Shown here: piece by piece, positions 1-32,848 of the stretch
How positions within the stretch are numbered: the stretch's first letter is position 1
Layout of the letters: the number at the start of each line of letters is the position of its first letter
From: a virus
Lineage: Duplodnaviria; Caudoviricetes
DNA length: 64,000 bases
Direction: 5' to 3' (one strand)
Virus record (IMG/VR): IMGVR_UViG_3300031867_000001
Location: 32,001 to 96,000 of that record
Notes under the pieces: model-generated
The model's input: only the letters and a program-made list of their open reading frames with translations
Told to the model about the DNA's origin: nothing
Databases searched by the model: none
Translations under genes and position numbers: made by a program

Positions 1-591
1 CGCAGCAGATATGGAGAACAGTTTGGATTCATCAATGTATTCAAACTCATTCTTGCATACAGAAAGCATGTTAACCCCAAGGTTAATGTGTTCACTGTAC
101 AGACTGCTGGATACGGTGATGCGGTCGTTCCGATGATGACTTACAGATGTGCCATTCTTACTGGTTGGACTGGTAAGGAAGTTCAGTTCGCCGCTGAATA
201 CATTAAGCAGTGGGATGAGATCGAAGCTAAGCGTGAGTCTCAGAAGAAGAAGATTGATGATGCATCCATTCTCAATCAAATTACTAAGGAAGATGTAATT
301 GAAGCAACTGAAGCTTATGAGCATAATCAGAAAGTTATGACTGATATTGCAAAGACGATCTTTTCTGATAAGCAATATCCTGATGCAGATGATAAAGAGC
401 TTCTTAAACAATTCGACGAGCAGATTAATGGTAAACCGAAGCTTGTTGATGAATCCAAGCAAGAAGCATTCGATAAGTTGACAAAGGACATGTCACCAAT
501 CGGTATTATCGCTTTGAAGTCACTGTTGAATGCGTATGCAAAGATGGATGATGACGAGCGTAAGAAGTTCTTTGAAGATATCAGCGAGTAA
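1..591 (+). CDS. 3' end of probable TROVE/Ro60 (Rsr)-like RNA-binding protein (vWA C-terminus), truncated by window start
   Basis: Frame 1 is open from base 1: RSRYGEQFGFINVFKLILAYRKHVNPKVNVFTVQTAGYG...AILTGWTGKE, which resembles the YR..VNP...GYG...GW tail of bacterial TROVE proteins (recognised from memory). Confidence 0.6.
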   Translation, partial: RSRYGEQFGFINVFKLILAYRKHVNPKVNVFTVQTAGYGDAVVPMMTYRCAILTGWTGKEVQFAAEYIKQWDEIEAKRESQKKKIDDASILNQITKEDVIEATEAYEHNQKVMTDIAKTIFSDKQYPDADDKELLKQFDEQINGKPKLVDESKQEAFDKLTKDMSPIGIIALKSLLNAYAKMDDDERKKFFEDISE

Positions 592-2908: not shown

Positions 2909-3217
2909 ATGAATAAGCGAATCAAAAAGAAGAAACAGAAGTTAGCAGCAATGCACGCTTCTAAATGGAAGGATATAAAGCTCGTTAAAAAGCGGGCTCA
3001 CGCGACCCGTATTGAAGTTCAGCATGGTTCATGGGGGATGTTCCCCGATAAAGATAACTATGCAAGGTATCTTCGGAAAAAGCGTTGTTGTGATAAAAAC
3101 GAAGCCAAAATCGAACAACACTTCTTATTTGGAGAGATCTTGTTGATTGCAGCAGCAAACGAACGCAAAAAGGTGAAGAAGAAGTTGTTTGCGAAAGAAG
3201 GTAATTATAATGGCTAA
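2909..3217 (+). CDS. Small basic hypothetical protein (MNKRIKKKK start)
   Basis: RBS AAGGAGG. Confidence 0.7.
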   Translation: MNKRIKKKKQKLAAMHASKWKDIKLVKKRAHATRIEVQHGSWGMFPDKDNYARYLRKKRCCDKNEAKIEQHFLFGEILLIAAANERKKVKKKLFAKEGNYNG

Positions 3218-3797
3218 AGAAAAGCATCAACAGCTATCAAGATTTTTATGCTACATCCTGAGACACAAACCTGGTGATCTCCATCTGGTGATGGATCACG
3301 AGGGCTTTGTCAATGTTCAGCAACTCATCAAGAATGTCAACGAGTATACATCGTATGAAATCAATGAAGACATTCTTCGGGAGATTGTTGATACAGATAG
3401 CAAAGGTCGGTATGAATATACAGGTGATGAAATCAGATGTGTTCAGGGGCATTCAATTCCATGGGTCGATCCGAAACCCACAATCAAAGAACCACCGACG
3501 TATCTGTTTCATGGAACGACGATGGAAGCTTTTGAACTCATCAAGAACGATGGTGAAATCAAGAAGATGAAACGCCATGCAGTTCATATGCAAGCTGATG
3601 TTTTAAAAGCAGCACAATCGGCAGAAAGATGGTCTTCATCTGAACCGGTTGTTCTCGTCATTAATGCACATGCAATGCATAATGACGGATATGAATTTGG
3701 TGTAACAAGAAATAATGTTTGGTTGACAGATCATGTACCAACAAAATACATTTGCTGGTACATCGTCAATGAAAAATCGGAGGAGGTGCGGTTGTGA
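3210..3797 (+). CDS. kptA: RNA 2'-phosphotransferase (Tpt1/KptA family)
   Basis: LSRFLCYILRH.P, RCVQGHS, YLFHGT, RHAVH, VWLTDHVP motifs. Confidence 0.93.
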   Translation: MAKEKHQQLSRFLCYILRHKPGDLHLVMDHEGFVNVQQLIKNVNEYTSYEINEDILREIVDTDSKGRYEYTGDEIRCVQGHSIPWVDPKPTIKEPPTYLFHGTTMEAFELIKNDGEIKKMKRHAVHMQADVLKAAQSAERWSSSEPVVLVINAHAMHNDGYEFGVTRNNVWLTDHVPTKYICWYIVNEKSEEVRL

Positions 3798-4296: not shown

Positions 4297-5268
4297 ATGC
4301 TGAGAGTTGAGTTTTCAAAGAACAACCTGACACAGTTTCAATCTAACTTGAGCCAGATTCTCAATTTGATGAATCCTGCATCGGTTAAGATTGGAACTCA
4401 TCTTGATACCTATGCGGCAAAAGTGACCCTCGAACACAAGGGTCGCTATGATGAAACTTCCATGAAAATACTTAGCAAAGGTGCTCGTCTCGGAGAGGCA
4501 TTTTGTCCAACATGTGATGTGTTCGCATATGATCTTGATGAGAATGGTGATCCCGACAACTGTTATATGTTCAAGAAGCCAACTGCATATGACTGCAGTG
4601 CATATCCCGATCGAATCACTGTTGAGATTGAATTTGGTGAACTTTATTCTGGACCAAATATCGATGAAAAATGTAAAGAGGCTGAAAAACTGAGATACTG
4701 GTCAACGGTAATGCGTAAACTCATGAAAGAGGACCTTGATAAGAAATTTAATGATAAGGGGGATGATAATGTGTCAGCTGAATTAAATCGTATATCAAAA
4801 CATGAATATTATTTGAAGATCGCCGAAGCTGTATCTCTGAGAGGAACCTGCTTGAGACGTAAATTCGGTGCGATTATCGTTAAAGATGATCGTATCGTAT
4901 CAACCGGATATGTTGGTGCTCCCCGTGGAAGAATCAACTGTTGTGATCGTGGGAAGTGTTATCGTATGGAGCATAATGTTCCCAGTGGTCAACGCTATGA
5001 ACTTTGTAGAAGTACACATGCCGAGATGAATGCAGTCATTCAAGCGTCACCGGAAGAAATGAAATTTGCAACACTGTATCTTGTAGGAATCGAAAATGAC
5101 GGTTCTTACACAAATGCAGACTGCTGTTCGATGTGTAAGCGGGTAATCATTAATTCTGGTATTAACACTGTGATTGCACGTCAAGCTGATGGAAGCTTCA
5201 AAAAGATTCATGTAAATGAATGGATCAATGATGATGATTCATTAGATATCGACCATAAGGGATATTAA
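4297..5268 (+). CDS. dCMP deaminase (C-terminal ~165 aa) with unknown N-terminal region
   Basis: RGTCLRRKFGAIIV, HAEMNA and CCSMCKR zinc-deaminase motifs; possible internal GTG start at 4771. Confidence 0.85.
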   Translation: MLRVEFSKNNLTQFQSNLSQILNLMNPASVKIGTHLDTYAAKVTLEHKGRYDETSMKILSKGARLGEAFCPTCDVFAYDLDENGDPDNCYMFKKPTAYDCSAYPDRITVEIEFGELYSGPNIDEKCKEAEKLRYWSTVMRKLMKEDLDKKFNDKGDDNVSAELNRISKHEYYLKIAEAVSLRGTCLRRKFGAIIVKDDRIVSTGYVGAPRGRINCCDRGKCYRMEHNVPSGQRYELCRSTHAEMNAVIQASPEEMKFATLYLVGIENDGSYTNADCCSMCKRVIINSGINTVIARQADGSFKKIHVNEWINDDDSLDIDHKGY

Positions 5269-5504: not shown

Positions 5505-6133
5505 AAACGATTGATTTGTTTGTAACGAAAGATGAGAAACTTGTGATGAAAATTCCGAAAGAATTTTCAAAATACACCGGGTTGGCAAAACTGAGAACGC
5601 CTTATATGACGCTCACTTCTTATAATGAGAATGGGGAATATAGCGGGTTTGATATTGCGCTTGTGGATATCAATCTTGAAGAAGGTTATGCTAAGTTCAT
5701 GGCTGGTACCAGCATTGCCAATCCACAAACTTTTACAATCAAATCTGCAGATGATCCAATCGTTATATTTGATGAGCATGACCCCGGTGTTGAGTATCAT
5801 ATCTTTGAAAAGACAGTTCAGTATGAGATCAATCAAGAGATCAAGGAAGGTTCATTATACAAGTTCCAGAATGCGTTTACAAATGAATGGTTCTTGGCAG
5901 TTGTTCAGAGTGTAGGATCATATCTTATTACTTTGAATAAACTTGACATAATAAGAAACAAAGATTACAATCCATCACTATATAGCTTGTGTCAAAATGA
6001 AGACATTTTCGGTATATGTGTATCTGATATGGTTTGTATTGAAAAATTTAAGAATTATGTCGTTACAGAACTCTTCGATCTAACTACGGCATTCGATGAT
6101 AATGACGAAGATGATATTGAGGAGGAAAAATAA
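5501..6133 (+). CDS. Hypothetical protein
   Basis: RBS GAGGAGG, 210 aa. Confidence 0.7.
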   Translation: MKTIDLFVTKDEKLVMKIPKEFSKYTGLAKLRTPYMTLTSYNENGEYSGFDIALVDINLEEGYAKFMAGTSIANPQTFTIKSADDPIVIFDEHDPGVEYHIFEKTVQYEINQEIKEGSLYKFQNAFTNEWFLAVVQSVGSYLITLNKLDIIRNKDYNPSLYSLCQNEDIFGICVSDMVCIEKFKNYVVTELFDLTTAFDDNDEDDIEEEK

Positions 6134-6134
6134 A

Positions 6135-6377
6135 ATGAAAAAGAAAGGTTTCACATTGATTGAACTGGTTGTTGTATTGGTAATCATCGGTGTGTTAGCA
6201 CTGATCGTTGTAGCAGCGGTAATGGGATATAGTGAGTACCGTTATTCAGTAACGGATCAGAACGGCACAATATACTATACTGACAGTGTTGAGTATGATG
6301 GTAACAGAGTCATATTCGTTGACCAACATGGTCATTCTCACACACTGACATCTTACTCAATTGAAGAGATCGGATAA
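6135..6377 (+). CDS. Prepilin-type N-terminal cleavage/methylation motif protein (small type IV pilin-like)
   Basis: MKKKG|FTLIELVVVLVIIGVLALIVV class III signal peptide with E+5. Confidence 0.85.
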   Translation: MKKKGFTLIELVVVLVIIGVLALIVVAAVMGYSEYRYSVTDQNGTIYYTDSVEYDGNRVIFVDQHGHSHTLTSYSIEEIG

Positions 6378-7252: not shown

Positions 7253-7929
7253 TGAAAAGAGATTACACAATTGAAAATCTGGATCAGCAGCCAACATCTG
7301 ATATTTGTATCGGTGAGATATTCTTCAATAAAGATGACGGCAAATTATATACATGGCTTGAAACGTGGGACGAATTTGGGGTGAACCCAGCTGGTGGAAC
7401 ATACAACGCAGTATCACGTCGACTTCATGCACACAATATGACGCATATTCGTAAACGTGAAGCATTACAGTTTTTGGGTGAAGCTAATAGTAACGACCGG
7501 CTTAGTATGACATGGTCAGTTGAAAGATTCACAGAAATAAAGTGTTTCTTAAGACACATGATCAATGAATTCAACAGACGTCAAAATTGTGGCATTGAAT
7601 TGAACGATATCACATGGAGTGACAATGCTACAACAATTAAGATCGGATCGGTCAATATCGAAATGGCTGTCACTTTCATGGACAACAATAATGAATCCCA
7701 TTACAGCACACTTAATTTTGAACTGTTGATTTCTGGATACATGCAAATTGAATGTGTTGAAAATGACGTGTTGTTATTCCGAATTGCAGCAGACCCAATG
7801 TGTCGAATGTTTGATATCAAAGACAATCGTATTGATACTGTATATGAAACAAATAATGTTGAATCGGGTTTCAGTGGACATAAGTTCTACAATATGCTGT
7901 ATGATATGATTCAAGATTGGTTCGAATAA
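7252..7929 (+). CDS. Hypothetical protein
   Basis: RBS GGAGGTG, TAATG overlap. Confidence 0.7.
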   Translation: MKRDYTIENLDQQPTSDICIGEIFFNKDDGKLYTWLETWDEFGVNPAGGTYNAVSRRLHAHNMTHIRKREALQFLGEANSNDRLSMTWSVERFTEIKCFLRHMINEFNRRQNCGIELNDITWSDNATTIKIGSVNIEMAVTFMDNNNESHYSTLNFELLISGYMQIECVENDVLLFRIAADPMCRMFDIKDNRIDTVYETNNVESGFSGHKFYNMLYDMIQDWFE

Positions 7930-7954
7930 TTTATATTATTCTGACAAGGACTAA

Positions 7955-8090
7955 TGTGTATATGTGGAATGATGCGGCGAAACAGTTACATCGATTAATT
8001 TGTATTTAATTGCCATAAGCGGTTCATTTCTAAATGATCAAATGCTGTGGATAAAAACTGTTTCGAATAATTCTCATTCCACATTACACA
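7955..8090 (+). ncRNA. Conserved-stem tRNA-mimic RNA copy A (Thr TGT anticodon stem-loop)
   Basis: TGTGGAAT-GATGCGG-CGAAACAGTT-ACATC ... AACTGTTTCG-AATAATTCTC-ATTCCACA; insert CGATTAA-TTTGTAT-TTAATTG. Confidence 0.6.
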
Positions 8091-8099
8091 TATAAATAC

Positions 8100-8182
8100 A
8101 TTTCCGATGCAGTGATATCAGTTACTTCGTCAATCTGTTAAATTGAAATGAGTACTAAACTGATATAGATATTCTCGGAAAT
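8100..8182 (+). ncRNA. Conserved-stem tRNA-mimic RNA copy B (Asn GTT anticodon stem-loop only)
   Basis: ATTTCC-GATGCAG..ATATCAGTT-ACTTC [TCAAT-CTGTTAA-ATTGA AATGAGTA] AACTGATAT..ATTCTC-GGAAAT. Confidence 0.7.
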
Positions 8183-8197
8183 ATAACATATAAATAC

Positions 8198-8337
8198 ATT
8201 TAGCTGAAGCAGTCATTAACAGTTACTTCATACATATTTATGATTTTTAAGTTCGAATCTTAAGTTTGTAGCGTTTGTTTGCAATCTAAGTGGCTAAAGG
8301 AATGCCACATAACTGTTATGAATATCCTCAGCTAAAT
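8198..8337 (+). ncRNA. Conserved-stem RNA copy C with degenerate permuted tRNA-like domain (hairpin, T-arm, acceptor-like stem, D-like arm)
   Basis: ATTTAGCT-GAAGCAG..AACAGTT-ACTTC ... TTAAG-TTCGAAT-CTTAA T-arm ... GTGGC/GCCAC ... AACTGTT..ATCCTC-AGCTAAAT. Confidence 0.6.
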
Positions 8338-8341
8338 TTAT

Positions 8342-8475
8342 GGGGACGATAGCTCAGTTGGTAGAGCACGTAAATGTCACTGTTACAAAAATCCTCACCG
8401 GATAGGTGATGCAGAAGTTAACAGTTACTTCGCATATGGAGCGCGTTGTCGTTAGTTCAAATCTAACTCGTCCCC
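8342..8475 (+). tRNA. tRNA-His-like (anticodon ATG, G-1:C73) interrupted by a ~60-nt conserved element in the anticodon stem
   Basis: 8-bp acceptor GGGGACGA/TCGTCCCC, D-arm GCTC/GAGC, T-arm GTTAG-TTCAAAT-CTAAC; removing ~8371-8430 gives CGCGC-ATATGGA-GCGCG. Confidence 0.7.
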
Positions 8476-8483
8476 CTCATTTA

Positions 8484-8635
8484 ATATTGATATACCGATG
8501 CAGTGATGCCTGGATACTTCGTGGTGAATAGGTTAACACATAAGAATGAAAATCTTACATATCGGGTTCAAGTCCCGACGGGACATCTAATAGATGTTTA
8601 TGTCTCCAAGCTCGATATTCTCGGTATATTAATAT
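8484..8635 (+). ncRNA. Conserved-stem RNA copy D enclosing a circularly permuted tRNA-Phe(GAA)
   Basis: GATGCAG..ATACTTC, D-arm GTG/CAC, TAAGA-ATGAAAA-TCTTA, TCGGG-TTCAAGT-CCCGA, acceptor closed by a loop (GACATCT-AAT-AGATGTT), then ATTCTC and closing stem. Confidence 0.7.
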
Positions 8636-8638
8636 AAT

Positions 8639-8715
8639 GCGACTGTAGTTCAATTGGTCAGAACATCTGCCTTCCAAGCAGGGGGTTGCGAATTCGAGTT
8701 TCGTCAGTCGCTCCA
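8639..8715 (+). tRNA. tRNA-Gly(TCC)
   Basis: Cloverleaf, anticodon loop CTTCCAA, encoded CCA. Confidence 0.9.
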
Positions 8716-8716
8716 C

Positions 8717-8815
8717 ATGCATGATGCAGTTATATCAGTTACTTCGATAACCTGTCACGTTATAATGAGTATTCTGCAAAGAATAATGTGTACTGGTATA
8801 AACATTCTCATGCAT
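8717..8815 (+). ncRNA. Conserved-stem tRNA-mimic RNA copy E (Asp GTC anticodon stem-loop)
   Basis: ATGCAT-GATGCAG-TTATATCAGT-TACTTC [ATAAC-CTGTCAC-GTTAT AATGAGTA..] ACTGGTATAA-ACATTCTC-ATGCAT. Confidence 0.7.
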
Positions 8816-8822
8816 ATTATTC

Positions 8823-8896
8823 GGGTCATTAGTCCAGTTGGTTAGAACGCAGCACTGTTAATGCTGATGTCATAGGTTCAAGTCCTATATGGCCCG
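8823..8896 (+). tRNA. tRNA-Asn(GTT)
   Basis: Cloverleaf, CAGCA-CTGTTAA-TGCTG; no encoded CCA. Confidence 0.9.
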
Positions 8897-8901
8897 CTTA
8901 T

Positions 8902-8978
8902 GGCTGGTTAGTAGAGTTGGTTAATACACCGGGTTTTCATCCCAGAGATCAGGAGTTCGATCCTCCTACCAGTCACCA
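8902..8978 (+). tRNA. tRNA-Glu(TTC)
   Basis: Cloverleaf, loop TTTTCAT, encoded CCA. Confidence 0.85.
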
Positions 8979-9083
8979 CGGGGTTATTATTTGAATAACC
9001 TCGCATTATGAAATGTTTGCAGGGCTTTTATGCCCTGCATTCATTTTCATTTTATTTTTATCATTTTAATGAGGTGATTAATC

Positions 9084-9278
9084 ATGACTGTTAACAAAAT
9101 CAAATTTCCAGATGGTACAGTAATCGATGTTGATAATGAAAAAACATTGAATGAGATTATGTCAATGCGTAAAGACATTAGAGACTTGAAAGATGCTGTT
9201 GGAACATTGAATTACAGAATCAATGATGTTATGCATATGATCGAAGAATTAAAACGTGATGTTTCATATTTACATTAA
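9084..9278 (+). CDS. Small coiled-coil hypothetical protein
   Basis: RBS GAGGTG; heptad-like C-terminus. Confidence 0.6.
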   Translation: MTVNKIKFPDGTVIDVDNEKTLNEIMSMRKDIRDLKDAVGTLNYRINDVMHMIEELKRDVSYLH

Positions 9279-9372
9279 ACGATACAACTAACAAATATAG
9301 TGGATGGAATATAGTCGGTCTGATTCTCAAATTTCATACAATGATTCTTCCTTTTGCAACCATCCACTTTAG

Positions 9373-9448
9373 GTCCGTTTAGCTCAGTTGGTAGAGCATG
9401 AAACCTTTAATTTCAGGGCCAAGGGTTCAACTCCCTTAACGGACACCA
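9373..9448 (+). tRNA. tRNA-Lys(TTT), with C at position 33
   Basis: Acceptor GTCCGTT/AACGGAC, TGAAA-CCTTTAA-TTTCA, encoded CCA. Confidence 0.8.
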
Positions 9449-9616
9449 TTGGTGCATTGGTACGTGCACCTCAAACACTGTGTAACGGGTCAATGTCAGT
9501 TCACGGACATTGACCCCCTCCTTCTTTACATGGTGAACGTTATTCACTTCTCATAGTTCGGTCGGGGGATTGCTCCCCCGACTCCTCCTTTTTCTATTTT
9601 TTATATTTTATTTATT

Positions 9617-9631
9617 TATATAATTAATATG
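9617..9631 (+). promoter_or_regulatory. Candidate phage promoter TATATAATTAATATG upstream of the Cas7-like gene
   Basis: Exact 15-mer recurring four times in intergenic positions. Confidence 0.6.
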
Positions 9632-9696
9632 TAATGAACACAGGTCAGGTATTCATTACAATATCATTTATAATAAATCTTTGGAGGTAATGTTTT

Positions 9697-10380
9697 ATGA
9701 AAAAGCTTAATGTCAAGGTCGTATTCGTAACAGGTCTGCTCGGTACAAAGCCGAACAATCAGGAAATCTTCTCGGAGTTTATCGCATCTAATGCACCGGA
9801 TGCAAAGACCCGTCAGCAGGAGATTGAAGACTCGTCCGTATCCGAGGTTGTTGACAAGTCGACAACTGTATTCGCCCGCACCAAGGATGGTAGACCCGTA
9901 TTTATGGACTATCACTGGAAGGGTTACTTCAAGGAGAAGTGCTCGTTCCTGAAGAAGAATGATACCGTTGATGATGGTTCCAAGCCGAAGTCCGCATCCA
10001 TCAAGGCTTTCAAGAAAGAGATTGATGGAAACATCTTCGTGTATCCCCGCAAGATCGTAATCCATACTGATGATGAGCTCACGATCAACCAGAGACCTCT
10101 CCGCACACAGACTATGCAGGGTGAACGTGTTGCGCTCAATTCGTCTGAGGAGATTCATGCACGTTCGTGGTGTGAGTTCACCGTAGAGTGCGAAATCGAG
10201 AAGCATGTTGAGTCCGTTCGTGAGTGGCTGAATTATGGTGTTAAGCACGGCACTGGTCAGTGGAGAAACTCTGGTGCAGGTAGATTCCTGTGGATGGAAC
10301 TCGATGATGAAGGAAACCAGATCGGTGGAAACTACACGGAAGAGAAACTCGAAGAGCTGATTGCTGAAGACGAGCTGTAA
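9697..10380 (+). CDS. Stand-alone Cas7/RAMP-superfamily-like protein
   Basis: N-terminal beta-strand then LLGT.P, a KGYFKE helix, RPLR thumb region and C-terminal glycine-rich loop YG...GTGQWRNSGAGRF; RBS GGAGG; no other cas gene in the window. Confidence 0.75.
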   Translation: MKKLNVKVVFVTGLLGTKPNNQEIFSEFIASNAPDAKTRQQEIEDSSVSEVVDKSTTVFARTKDGRPVFMDYHWKGYFKEKCSFLKKNDTVDDGSKPKSASIKAFKKEIDGNIFVYPRKIVIHTDDELTINQRPLRTQTMQGERVALNSSEEIHARSWCEFTVECEIEKHVESVREWLNYGVKHGTGQWRNSGAGRFLWMELDDEGNQIGGNYTEEKLEELIAEDEL

Positions 10381-17516: not shown

Positions 17517-17613
17517 TAGGCTCCAAACACATTTCTTTTTCCCAAAGGGTTTATCAAGTGGGAGGTTCTTCATCTCATTCTCCTTCCACTTGATATACCG
17601 ACCTTCTTTACAT

Positions 17614-17700
17614 GCATCCGTGGCAGAATTGGCATATGCAATGGACTTAAAATCCATCGCCCTATTGGGATTGAGGGTTCAACTCCCTTCGGATGCACCA
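17614..17700 (+). tRNA. tRNA-Leu(TAA)
   Basis: Cloverleaf with variable arm, loop CTTAAAA, CCA. Confidence 0.92.
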
Positions 17701-17822
17701 TAGGAGAGTTCTTCAAAGAGTTCAGCATACTCCTCAGAGGAAACCTCTCTGCAATAATCACTTTCCCTAATGCTTCGTATGGTACTGAACGACTCCACAT
17801 TGTTCCAGCAAATGTGGCAGTG

Positions 17823-18517
17823 ACCATACCTAATGGATTCGTAACGCGTAATCATAAAGGATTACATTTCGAATGATCCAAGTATGAATCGGCGCTGGTA
17901 CTGGAATGCCAGACACCAATGTTACTTCGCGACAATTTCTGGACTGAATAAGATCGCAGAGTTGAAAACGCTTGCAGGTAATACAGTCGAAGGGAAGCAT
18001 CTTCCAGATATACATGTATGGAATAGGCGGTTGATCACGCAACATGTTGTCTGGGTGACCTTAGGTGGGGTGACAAGATGCAAACAAAGTCCTGGGCAGT
18101 GGTGATTCGCTGTTGCATTGTGTGACGACATAACCAGATAGAGTCATCGCCCAGGCAAACTATTTATGGTTCGCAAAAGTTCACTCCTTTTGAAAACCTC
18201 CTTATATCATATTAACATAAGAACACAGGCTTGTGTTAATAACTGACCTGATCCACAGGAGATTGATCACCGCGATGCATCATTGATCATCTCTGAGGAT
18301 AATTCACACATAAGCAAACCGCGGAGCTTATGAGCCAATCAACCCGGAACATTGAGGGTCCGAACGTGGAAGGTCATGTGCAATCATCTTGTCAATTGAG
18401 GTACCGATTGTACGGATGTAGTGTCGTAGAGGGGTTGGGCACGCGCACACCTCCAATGGAACCGTTCTGTTATATGAATATACGTTTGGTATATCTCGAA
18501 CAGGACGGGACCTACTG
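17823..18517 (+). ncRNA. Candidate large structured ncRNA(s) within the tRNA cluster
   Basis: ~700 nt without a credible RBS-led ORF, higher GC, many helices; ACCATA at 17823 can pair with TATGGT ending at 18170. Confidence 0.4.
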
Positions 18518-18533
18518 AGGTAAATTGAGATAT

Positions 18534-18610: not shown

Positions 18611-18644
18611 AGGTTATTTGGCATTTGTGCATTTAAATATAGAT

Positions 18645-18721
18645 TGTGGTGTAGCCAAGAGGCTTAAGGCAACGGACTTTGACTCCGTCATTCGAGGTTT
18701 CGAATACCTCCACCACAACCA
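18645..18721 (+). tRNA. tRNA-Gln(TTG)
   Basis: Acceptor TGTGGTG/CACCACA, loop CTTTGAC, CCA. Confidence 0.88.
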
Positions 18722-18854
18722 TCGATCACTGGACATAGTGGTCATCTCTAACTTCCTATGGTATGAATATTTGGTGGGGGCTTATGCCCCCGCCGGTTCA
18801 TACTGTCGGTTTACGATTTTATAATTTTCTCTTAATCAAAAGGAGGGTTATAAA

Positions 18855-31816: not shown

Positions 31817-32848
31817 ATGAACACAAGAATGATTATTGAGAATAACCTGAAGAAAGTTTTGACGCCTCTCCAGCAGATCGCTTTCGACAACATTGATCTG
31901 CCAAATTCAAAACTGGCTAAGAAGCTTAACCGAACACCACAAAATACGAACTCCATCTCTAAAGCTTTAAAGGCGAAGCTTGAGAAACTCGAGTATACGG
32001 AAGAGTTCATCGATGATGCATGTATGCATCCGGATAAGTATCTGATCTCTTCAGAGGAATTAAGTGAAGAGATTGTGAAAAAGCTTGTCAGTGAGTACGG
32101 CAGAATCACAGTAACCACTGAAGAAATCAACAACGATCGCACCAGACTTTGCGAGGATCCTGTATGGAATAGCTTCCTCGAAACCTCGTCCACGAAAATG
32201 TGGAAAACCTACCCATTCAATTTAATCGCATTGATATTCGGTTTCACAAAGGAAGAGATGACAAACAGCGGATACATTAACGTTGACAGCACAGTTCAGA
32301 AGGAACTCGCTATCATGTGGGTTAATGGAGTCATCAAAACATGTCAAATTGCTGAAAAGCGATTCGATATCGTAGAAATGCGTTATCAGCAGCACTTGTC
32401 GTTGGTTGATATTGGTAATAAATACCATATTACCACGAATAGAGTCAGACAACTTCTGGCTAAATTCCTCCGGCAGATGAGACATCCCACAAGATCCAGA
32501 AAGCTTCGCGTTATAACCGAGGCATTGTTTAATACCAATGGTGAGGTTAACTTTTCAGATATAATCACGAAGTATGAACGTAAAATGACGGAGAAGGAAA
32601 TTGCACGCGATCTTGCTGCAAAGAACGGCAATGTGTCGCTTGATGACATCACGATCGAAGAACTGAATTTCTCGGTTCGGACATTTAATTGTTTGAAGCG
32701 TGCTGGTATCAATAATGTGGAAGAACTTGTTGATGCCATAACGAAGAAAACTGAAACAGGGTTTTTGTGCGATATTAGGAATCTCGGCAAGAAGTCCTAT
32801 GGCGATATTTGTGACAAACTCACATCGATGGGGTTCTTAAAGGAATAA
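31817..32848 (+). CDS. Sigma-70 region 4 + RNA polymerase alpha-CTD fusion protein
   Basis: SLVDIG..YHITTNRVRQLLAKFLRQMRHPTRSRKLR (sigmaA region 4-like) and IEELNFSVRTFNCLKRAGINNVEEL...IRNLGKKS (alpha-CTD). Confidence 0.85.
   Translation: MNTRMIIENNLKKVLTPLQQIAFDNIDLPNSKLAKKLNRTPQNTNSISKALKAKLEKLEYTEEFIDDACMHPDKYLISSEELSEEIVKKLVSEYGRITVTTEEINNDRTRLCEDPVWNSFLETSSTKMWKTYPFNLIALIFGFTKEEMTNSGYINVDSTVQKELAIMWVNGVIKTCQIAEKRFDIVEMRYQQHLSLVDIGNKYHITTNRVRQLLAKFLRQMRHPTRSRKLRVITEALFNTNGEVNFSDIITKYERKMTEKEIARDLAAKNGNVSLDDITIEELNFSVRTFNCLKRAGINNVEELVDAITKKTETGFLCDIRNLGKKSYGDICDKLTSMGFLKE

Follow-up and report, generated by a model that had tools for sequence, protein, structure and literature searches.

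A capped tRNA-Phe-like body on a Ro60-linked handle in a giant rumen phage: probable Y-like RNA of a new architecture

The region considered here is a 64,000-nucleotide (nt) stretch of the IMG/VR virus record IMGVR_UViG_3300031867_000001 (positions 32,001 to 96,000 of the record; hereafter the window), which belongs to a giant rumen phage whose genome spans 250.5 kilobases (kb) and has terminal repeats. At its left edge lies the end of a gene for a homolog of Ro60, and about 7.9 kb beyond it, on the same strand, stands the 152-nt RNA element that is the subject of this report. This element, copy E (window 8484-8635, + strand), is the fifth of six modules (A-F) arranged in tandem at window 7955-8815 (+), all of them built on a common stem, internal loop and stem, here called the handle; a seventh handle module is located at genome 26404-26555. 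Enclosed by its handle, copy E carries a body resembling tRNA-Phe(GAA), complete with D, anticodon and T arms, which the original prediction had taken for a circularly permuted tRNA gene. A direct reading of the sequence places every part of the locus as follows:

Window 1-591 (genome 30426-32591), + strand: 3′ end of the gene for the Ro60/TROVE homolog, 721 amino acids (aa), with Pfam TROVE.
Window 8484-8498, + strand: 5′ strand of P1 of the handle, ending in CGA; 15 of 15 positions pair with 8621-8635.
Window 8499-8507, + strand: 5′ strand of the internal loop, UGCAG and UGAU; GA(U/A)GCAG occurs in 51 of 55 modules.
Window 8508-8514, + strand: 5′ strand of P2; 6 of 7 positions pair with 8605-8611.
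Window 8515-8519, + strand: 5′ strand of P3, the conserved UACUU; three pairs and a conserved U-U with AUGUC at 8600-8604.
Window 8520-8521, + strand: acceptor nt 6-7, CG, paired with CG at 8579-8580.
Window 8522-8523, + strand: U8 and G9 of the tRNA-like core (8522-8578), a core that rests on ARAGORN, the Rfam tRNA alignment and a cloverleaf drawing.
Window 8524-8539, + strand: D arm with GG in the loop, followed by A26.
Window 8541-8557, + strand: anticodon arm UAAGA-AUGAAAA-UCUUA, with GAA at 8548-8550.
Window 8558-8561, + strand: variable region, part of the core.
Window 8562-8578, + strand: T arm with the loop UUCAAGU, canonical, part of the core.
Window 8579-8585, + strand: 3′ strand of the acceptor, nt 66-72, CGGGACA, from the sequence and the parse of orthologs.
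Window 8586-8594, + strand: cap UCU-AAU-AGA, an extension of 3 base pairs (bp) with an AAU loop, present in the minimum-free-energy fold.
Window 8595-8599, + strand: displaced acceptor nt 1-5, UGUUU; 5 of 5 positions pair with 8581-8585.
Window 8600-8604, + strand: 3′ strand of P3, AUGUC, from the junction-anchored parse of orthologs.
Window 8605-8611, + strand: 3′ strand of P2, 6 of 7 positions paired with 8508-8514.
Window 8612-8620, + strand: 3′ strand of the internal loop, UCGAUAUUC; the family motif before P1 is AUAUUC.
Window 8621-8635, + strand: 3′ strand of P1, 15 of 15 positions paired with 8484-8498.

Only nt 1-5 of the acceptor are displaced in copy E, and the remainder follows normal tRNA order. 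The arrangement described in the original prediction (CG-UG, then D, anticodon and T arms, CGGGACA, a hairpin and UGUUU) was recovered as claimed and is kept in relatives. The 7-bp acceptor that had been proposed is equally sound, as UGUUU joined to CG pairs with CGGGACA at 7/7 positions with two G-U pairs included, and the enclosing stem said to be conserved is paired at 15/15 positions and belongs to a shared handle family. The anticodon loop is canonical (7 nt, U33, A37). The discriminator position is taken by U8586 of the cap, and an encoded CCA is lacking, whereas most other tRNAs read in the window have one after the discriminator. The fold of the 152-nt element has a z score of -3.3, and a hairpin anchored at nt 68 arose in 0.6% of shuffles of the same stretch. 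At the level of sequence the pairing fits two descriptions, one of a capped acceptor from which the handle branches at nt 5/6, the other of an acceptor that runs into the handle (P3 plus CG giving seven positions) with a hairpin inserted in its 3′ strand.

The comparison covered Ro60-carrying relatives, namely the IMG/VR phage G001, eleven contigs from JGI and further contigs from ENA/Logan (L numbers below). Orthologs of copy E were found in five further phage lineages, in which the closed, permuted-order acceptor is kept with compensating sequences. Each ortholog was parsed with the junction as anchor, because MAFFT misaligns the cap hairpins:

L134:15627-15765 and L153:16230-16368: positional orthologs of copy E, the L134 one 71.6% identical to the window copy.
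L129:1496-1631 and L134:1671-1806: orthologs from one lineage.
L151:3341-3476: ortholog.
L135:9508-9656: ortholog.
L152:9546-9690: ortholog.

The 5-mer downstream of the cap pairs with nt 68-72 at 4-5 of 5 positions in each of the six lineages, through six different sequences:

UGUUU after the cap, GGACA at nt 68-72 (copy E)
GAGUU after the cap, AACUC at nt 68-72
AGAUA after the cap, AAUCU at nt 68-72
AUGUU after the cap, AACAU at nt 68-72
GGAUU after the cap, AGUCC at nt 68-72
AGGAU after the cap, GUCCU at nt 68-72

The contiguous UNCUU, by comparison, gives only 1-3 of 5 pairs with nt 68-72 in these lineages, and nearest-neighbour energies, calculated for five sequences, favour the closed over the contiguous form in each of them, by 6-10 kcal/mol. 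In the five lineages whose stem runs without a break from nt 68, a perfect hairpin anchored there had shuffle P values of 0.002-0.04; in the G001 copy this position is an A-A mismatch. The neighbouring helices change as well, with the lower acceptor pairs going from CG/CG to CAG/CUG in L151, and P3 (UNCUU/AUGNN) retaining its U-U mismatch as its second pair alternates between A-U and C-G. In P1, 5 of 7 pairs change on both sides, with 100% of the cells paired. A covariance model of the proposed structure scored eight copies at 97-142 bits, and in the model-fitted alignment of these eight sequences 83.9% of the cells are paired and both partners change in 24 of 38 pairs, a level of pairing reached by none of 500 shuffles (slid controls, 31-46%). 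As this alignment forces unequal caps into one template, the cap helix (helix 8) is only 59% paired in it. The closed acceptor in permuted order is real and under selection.

The cap and the height of the junction are less uniform. In L152 a 7-bp acceptor is closed directly by a 5-nt loop, and in further relatives, from L138, L135 and L152, the 5′ acceptor strand is contiguous over 3 to about 8 nt, two of them also having a distal hairpin. The contiguous joins in these three relatives mean that the junction is not fixed at nt 5/6; overall, cap length and junction height vary over 2 to about 8 contiguous pairs.

The anticodon changes as well, being GAA, GUA, GUG, GUU or UUA among the orthologs. 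The positional ortholog (L134/L153) has an 8-nt anticodon loop, GUUGUAAA, and the GUG ortholog has an 8-nt loop as well, which makes two lineages with such loops; in the GUU ortholog the tRNA body bears a long variable arm. With variable anticodons, 8-nt loops, a discriminator that is not conserved among orthologs and no encoded CCA, the cargo of copy E is not behaving like a decoder tRNA. As transcribed, it possesses an elbow and an intact anticodon arm, and since it has no free CCA end it cannot be aminoacylated. Across the family, the anticodon-like loops comprise GAA, GUA, GUG, GUU, GUC, GCA and GCU, that is, all seven two-codon NNY boxes with G34, and UUU and UUA loops are also present (modules of window 7955-8815 and of L126, L134, L135, L139, L142, L151, L152 and L153). 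Anticodons of four-codon boxes were not seen among the loops of the handle modules, a set in which numbers are small and copies are related by descent. Speculatively, such a spread would suit RNAs that act as decoys or adaptors towards anticodon-loop-reading enzymes, host anticodon nucleases for example.

The handle itself defines a family of RNAs. Its modules share a variable closing stem ending in (C/U)GA, then (U/A)GCAG, P2, UAC(U/A)UC, an insert, P2′, AUAUUC and the closing stem again. Both stems, with the internal loop between them, are there and covary. The 5′ motif (C/U)GA(U/A)GCAG reads CGAU in copy E and CGAAG in some other modules, and the commonest motif at the 3′ junction is (A/U)(U/C)AUUCUC. 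The inserts differ widely: some copies hold anticodon-like hairpins only, with the loops CUGUUAA, CUGUCAC and UUUGUAU, copy C holds a T arm, a closed stem and a D-like arm, and in copy D (8343-8476) the handle is closed by a loop and lies inside a tRNA-shaped RNA with open acceptor ends. A simple regular-expression descriptor returned 55 distinct matches from 15 sources, with one or more of them false (a handle-like match at genome 242213-242356 was rejected as a false positive). P2, which the descriptor does not require, pairs at 7/7 positions in 27 and at 6/7 in 16 of the 55 modules, against 3% and 25% of shuffles. In IMG/VR, a 20-base pattern of the capped acceptor found one related phage, the other five matches being coding DNA, and the exact handle pattern gave at least 119 matches, none of which, among those retrieved, has the P2 complement, so that they are attributed to chance. 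A blastn search against GenBank phages matched only ordinary tRNAs, and a literature search found no paper on this handle or architecture.

Some further relations within the family deserve record. Copy D and module i of G001 (L126:2275-2409) are circular permutations of each other, one with an open acceptor and a closed handle and the other with the reverse, and both retain UACUUCG and CGUAA(A)UGU(C/U) at the joint. The 12-mer TTGATATACCGA, which is the 5′ strand of P1 in copy E (8487-8498), recurs at 17581-17592 just upstream of tRNA-Leu(UAA), with a chance expectation of about 0.01 per 64 kb, and may be a remnant of recombination; the model R1 gives weak full-length matches near this tRNA-Leu (17589-17737) and near tRNA-Gln (18621-18770).

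The protein to which the family is linked is a Ro60 homolog. Against the phiRo60 structures 9KOP and 9L5Y it reached an E value of 1e-10 with phmmer. Its AlphaFold model has a predicted TM score (pTM) of 0.70, and the top fold matches are to Ro60 structures only: phiRo60 (target TM 0.70), Deinococcus radiodurans Rsr (0.64), then Xenopus and human Ro60, with alignments that cover the ring and the vWA domain. In the 250-kb genome none of the seven handle modules is farther than 8.3 kb from this gene, and each is on the same strand, the only one on which model R1 matches modules. Across this phage clade about 50 handle modules flank Ro60 genes, in every case on the strand of the gene. The linkage is not confined to close relatives. 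The Ro60 of G001 is 72% identical to the protein of the source phage, and at 54-60% identity the modules still accompany the gene and abut it; in distant relatives the distance to the TROVE gene is no more than about 50 nt, the modules of L135 stopping 45 nt before it and those of L139, L142 and L152 beginning 10-46 nt after it. In the source phage true tRNA genes stand between the modules, and the whole looks like a single transcription unit ending at a terminator-like site at 9018-9039.

The surroundings of the gene also contain enzymes of RNA repair. A Tpt1/KptA RNA 2′-phosphotransferase is encoded near Ro60 (window 3189-3797, 137 bits), and relatives have a 213-aa RNA ligase (PF09414) directly upstream of Ro60 (L149:9330-9971, and likewise L150, L151, L153, L154 and L155). 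This ligase is found in most relatives but not in the source genome, where an unrelated 212-aa open reading frame (ORF) of no known family occupies the position; for a neighbouring 225-aa ORF, relatives were sought and none was found. Tpt1 and the ligase fit an RNA-repair particle, and would also fit a sealing step.

Known Ro60-partner RNAs offer the closest comparison. A sister module in G001 (L126:2274-2413) has the classic order of T arm, closed 7-bp acceptor and D arm, and it matches the full Rfam YrlA model (RF02553) with 42.8 bits and an E value of 8e-8, below the gathering score of 69. With this match and the Ro60 linkage, the handle family is best placed among the Ro60-partner Y RNAs. 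As in Y RNAs of the YrlA type (Chen et al., 2014, PMC4201824; Wang et al., 2018, bioRxiv 10.1101/312249), copy E is encoded near the Ro60 gene and on its strand, its ends pair into a stem with an internal loop, which in YrlA binds the protein, and it contains a tRNA mimic with D and T arms whose acceptor is sealed by a loop and has no free CCA. In YrlA, however, the handle stands in place of the anticodon stem, and the T arm comes first, then the closed acceptor and the D arm, whereas copy E runs through D arm, full anticodon arm and T arm, and its handle enters the acceptor between nt 5 and 6. The handle motifs also differ, being CGAUGCAG here and GNCGAA(N)G in the YrlA type.

Two other systems resemble copy E in part. 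In D. radiodurans Yrn1 the orientation of T and D is opposite to that of YrlA (PMC4201824), and, as in copy E, the order is D, anticodon-arm, T with the Ro stem on the acceptor side. Going by its published description, the "anticodon" loop of Yrn1 has 6 nt, its D arm is doubtful and a capped upper acceptor is missing, unlike in copy E with its near-perfect tRNA body and sealed 7-bp acceptor. The other system is the Thermus phage phiLo, which also encodes a Ro60 with RNAs next to its gene, and whose phiRo60 is the best match of our protein in both sequence and fold. phiRo60 binds two phage-encoded stem-bulge-stem Y-like RNAs, Yrl1 and Yrl2, and can recruit host PNPase; a term search of that text turned up no tRNA-like parts in Yrl1 or Yrl2, "tRNA-like" occurring 0 times (PMC12135203). 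The phages considered here differ in having arrays of 7-10 RNAs with varied cargoes instead of two RNAs, and the protein identity is about 20%. Y RNAs that mimic tRNA are known, and the phage Ro60 system adds a capped, near-perfect tRNA with an anticodon arm.

On this basis, copy E is probably a Y-like RNA partner of Ro60 with a new architecture, in which the handle is grafted into the acceptor stem of a tRNA mimic; it is most likely a protein-tethered mimic and not a scrambled tRNA gene for translation, and while the analysis establishes the secondary structure with its conservation, the handle family and the genomic link to Ro60, the absence of maturation to a translating tRNA is inferred, as are Ro60 binding and the decoy or adaptor role. 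The array would be transcribed together with tRNA-Gly, -Asn and -Glu up to the terminator-like site at 9018-9039. In copy E the 5′ and 3′ ends form the handle from P1, an asymmetric loop (UGCAG against AUAUUC), P2 and the short P3 (UACUU/AUGUC), and by analogy with Y RNAs this handle would be bound by the phage's own Ro60 homolog. P3 opens to a three-way junction inside the acceptor stem of the complete tRNA-Phe(GAA)-like body, acceptor nt 6-7 being supplied from the 5′ side and nt 1-5 after the 3′ strand, with the 3-bp/AAU cap closing both. With its elbow and anticodon arm exposed, the sealed cargo could then attract a factor that recognises tRNA and, as a decoy or adaptor, tether or sequester it at the Ro60 particle; candidate targets are anticodon nucleases of the host, enzymes that modify or repair tRNA, and PNPase. 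Copy E would act as one of seven RNAs of the phage with differing tRNA or anticodon-arm cargoes.

A modular series of near-perfect tRNAs, bare anticodon arms and YrlA-type bodies points to tRNA-recognising factors as the targets of the tRNA-like domain, for instance anticodon nucleases of host defence or tRNA repair enzymes. The RNA set of the phage Ro60 provides defined baits for pulling down such factors.

Several observations weigh against a Y-like mimic. Neither Rfam Y_RNA nor YrlA matches the handle at E <= 10 (window 7800-9700), and in copy E it reads CGAU rather than the CGAA of described bacterial and phage Y RNAs. The body is also more tRNA-perfect than a mimic needs, with its 7-nt loop, U33, A37 and exact 7-bp acceptor. 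By analogy with M. smegmatis YrlA, RNase P could open the cap, and the phage Tpt1 and the RNA ligase beside Ro60 in relatives could in principle serve maturation.

The RNase P route is the alternative that survives best, even if we consider it unlikely. It supposes processing as in YrlA, with RNase P cutting 5′ of U8595, followed by 3′ trimming and CCA addition by the host; the product would be a tRNA-like RNA in two pieces, still tethered by the handle, whose acceptor end is free and might even accept an amino acid. The exact 7-bp acceptor and canonical loop of copy E make such opening of the cap conceivable, and the L152 acceptor closed directly by a 5-nt loop is in line with it. The M. smegmatis YrlA is cut by RNase P and CCA-tailed in vivo, and the main determinant of this cleavage is an acceptor stacked on the T arm, which copy E would supply with a canonical T arm; Salmonella YrlA and Yrn1, by contrast, are not cleaved (Chen et al., PMC4201824). 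In copy E, positions -1 to -3 are base-paired with 73-75, and cap length and junction height vary among the relatives. CCA-adding enzyme and TGT were searched for in the source genome and are absent. A73 is the usual discriminator of tRNA-Phe, and copy E has U.

A different doubt concerns the handle, which would not be a Ro60 site but would serve a tRNA operon in processing or stability, or as a ribozyme so far unrecognised, with merely syntenic linkage to the gene. The departure from the described GNCGAA and CGAA motifs and the interleaving with true tRNAs in one apparent unit speak for it. The linkage is held down to 54-60% Ro60 identity with modules abutting the gene, and the sister module matches YrlA, and we judge this reading very unlikely. 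A self-cleaving ribozyme or processing module, which had been the first idea for the handle, was rejected: in the handle region of the window no Rfam family other than tRNA matches at E <= 10, ribozyme families included, and it had no other support.

Tpt1 and the ligase are compatible with a sealing step, and a small probability is therefore kept for real maturation. Here the capped body would be a true precursor, opened by RNase P while on the Ro60 handle and CCA-tailed. It might also be set free through cuts at the foot of P3, with its acceptor nick closed by a nick-sealing RNA ligase and the 2′-phosphate cleared by Tpt1. This is a long shot, but if true it would be a route in a bacterial virus from a permuted gene to a working tRNA without a splicing endonuclease.

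Very unlikely too is the permuted tRNA-Phe gene in its full sense, in which cuts at the base of P3, sealing of the nick at nt 5/6 and removal of the cap would yield a translating tRNA. Permuted tRNA genes were reportedly described in Cyanidioschyzon merolae and some archaea by Soma and others in 2007 and in later work. Those genes are split in loops, have a bulge-helix-bulge formed by leader and trailer, and need a splicing endonuclease and a ligase. Like those genes, copy E has part of its 5′ acceptor strand downstream of the 3′ strand after a short linker; unlike them, it displaces only nt 1-5, lacks such a motif and enzyme, and has an unconserved anticodon. The would-be cut sites, 8519/8520 and 8599/8600, are unbulged and directly opposite each other at the three-way junction, with P3 a plain helix of five positions, and hence no bulge-helix-bulge motif was found by inspection at 8515-8521 / 8595-8604. 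A splicing endonuclease (PF01974), RtcB, a PF09414 ligase and the ligase of the relatives were all searched for in the 250-kb source genome and are absent. The perfect 7-bp acceptor that UGUUU and CG give on a canonical body is what the idea has in its favour, together with the phage Tpt1, the PF09414 ligase beside Ro60 in relatives, and the fact that copy E is the sole RNA with a Phe anticodon found by ARAGORN in the phage genome. The 8-nt loop of the L134/L153 positional ortholog, the other anticodons elsewhere, the missing CCA and a handle common to cargoes that are anticodon hairpins only all stand against it. The original prediction is supported in part: the permuted topology is correct and conserved, but the processing biology of permuted genes is not supported, given the lack of motif, enzymes and encoded CCA and the changing anticodons.

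An ordinary, unpermuted tRNA-Phe gene at 8515-8587, with a weak acceptor and a leader-trailer pairing that is fortuitous or related to processing, is the least credible of all. Both ARAGORN and Rfam make this call, and the Rfam tRNA score (RF00005; 38.6 bits, E value of 1.3e-4 in 64 kb) exceeds the gathering score of 29; it is the lowest among ten tRNA matches in the window. Joins through a longer contiguous 5′ acceptor strand (L138:4849-4981, L135:8729-8866, L152:7709-7845) would also favour it. The programs take UACUUCG as the 5′ acceptor strand, which against CGGGACA gives two mismatches and two G-U pairs (5/7 paired), and contiguous pairing falls to 1-2 of 5 in orthologs. ARAGORN fails on the G001 copy of the capped element, and the Rfam tRNA model covers the L135 and L152 orthologs only at model positions 5-66 and 6-65. 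Since UACUU, a family-wide handle motif with AUGNN as its partner, is borrowed as acceptor nt 1-5, the call is an artefact without support in relatives. Phage tRNA inventories would be inflated where tRNA finders miscall such elements as tRNA-Phe.

Other features of the window can be noted briefly. Between Ro60 and the array are encoded a 323-aa protein with a cytidine/dCMP deaminase domain (window 4297-5268) and a smaller one of 93 aa whose N terminus has a prepilin-type methylation motif (window 6096-6377). From tRNA-Leu to tRNA-Met (window 17700-18530), about 800 nt have no convincing ORF and no Rfam match at E <= 1; this interval is richer in G+C by eye and could be a large structured RNA.
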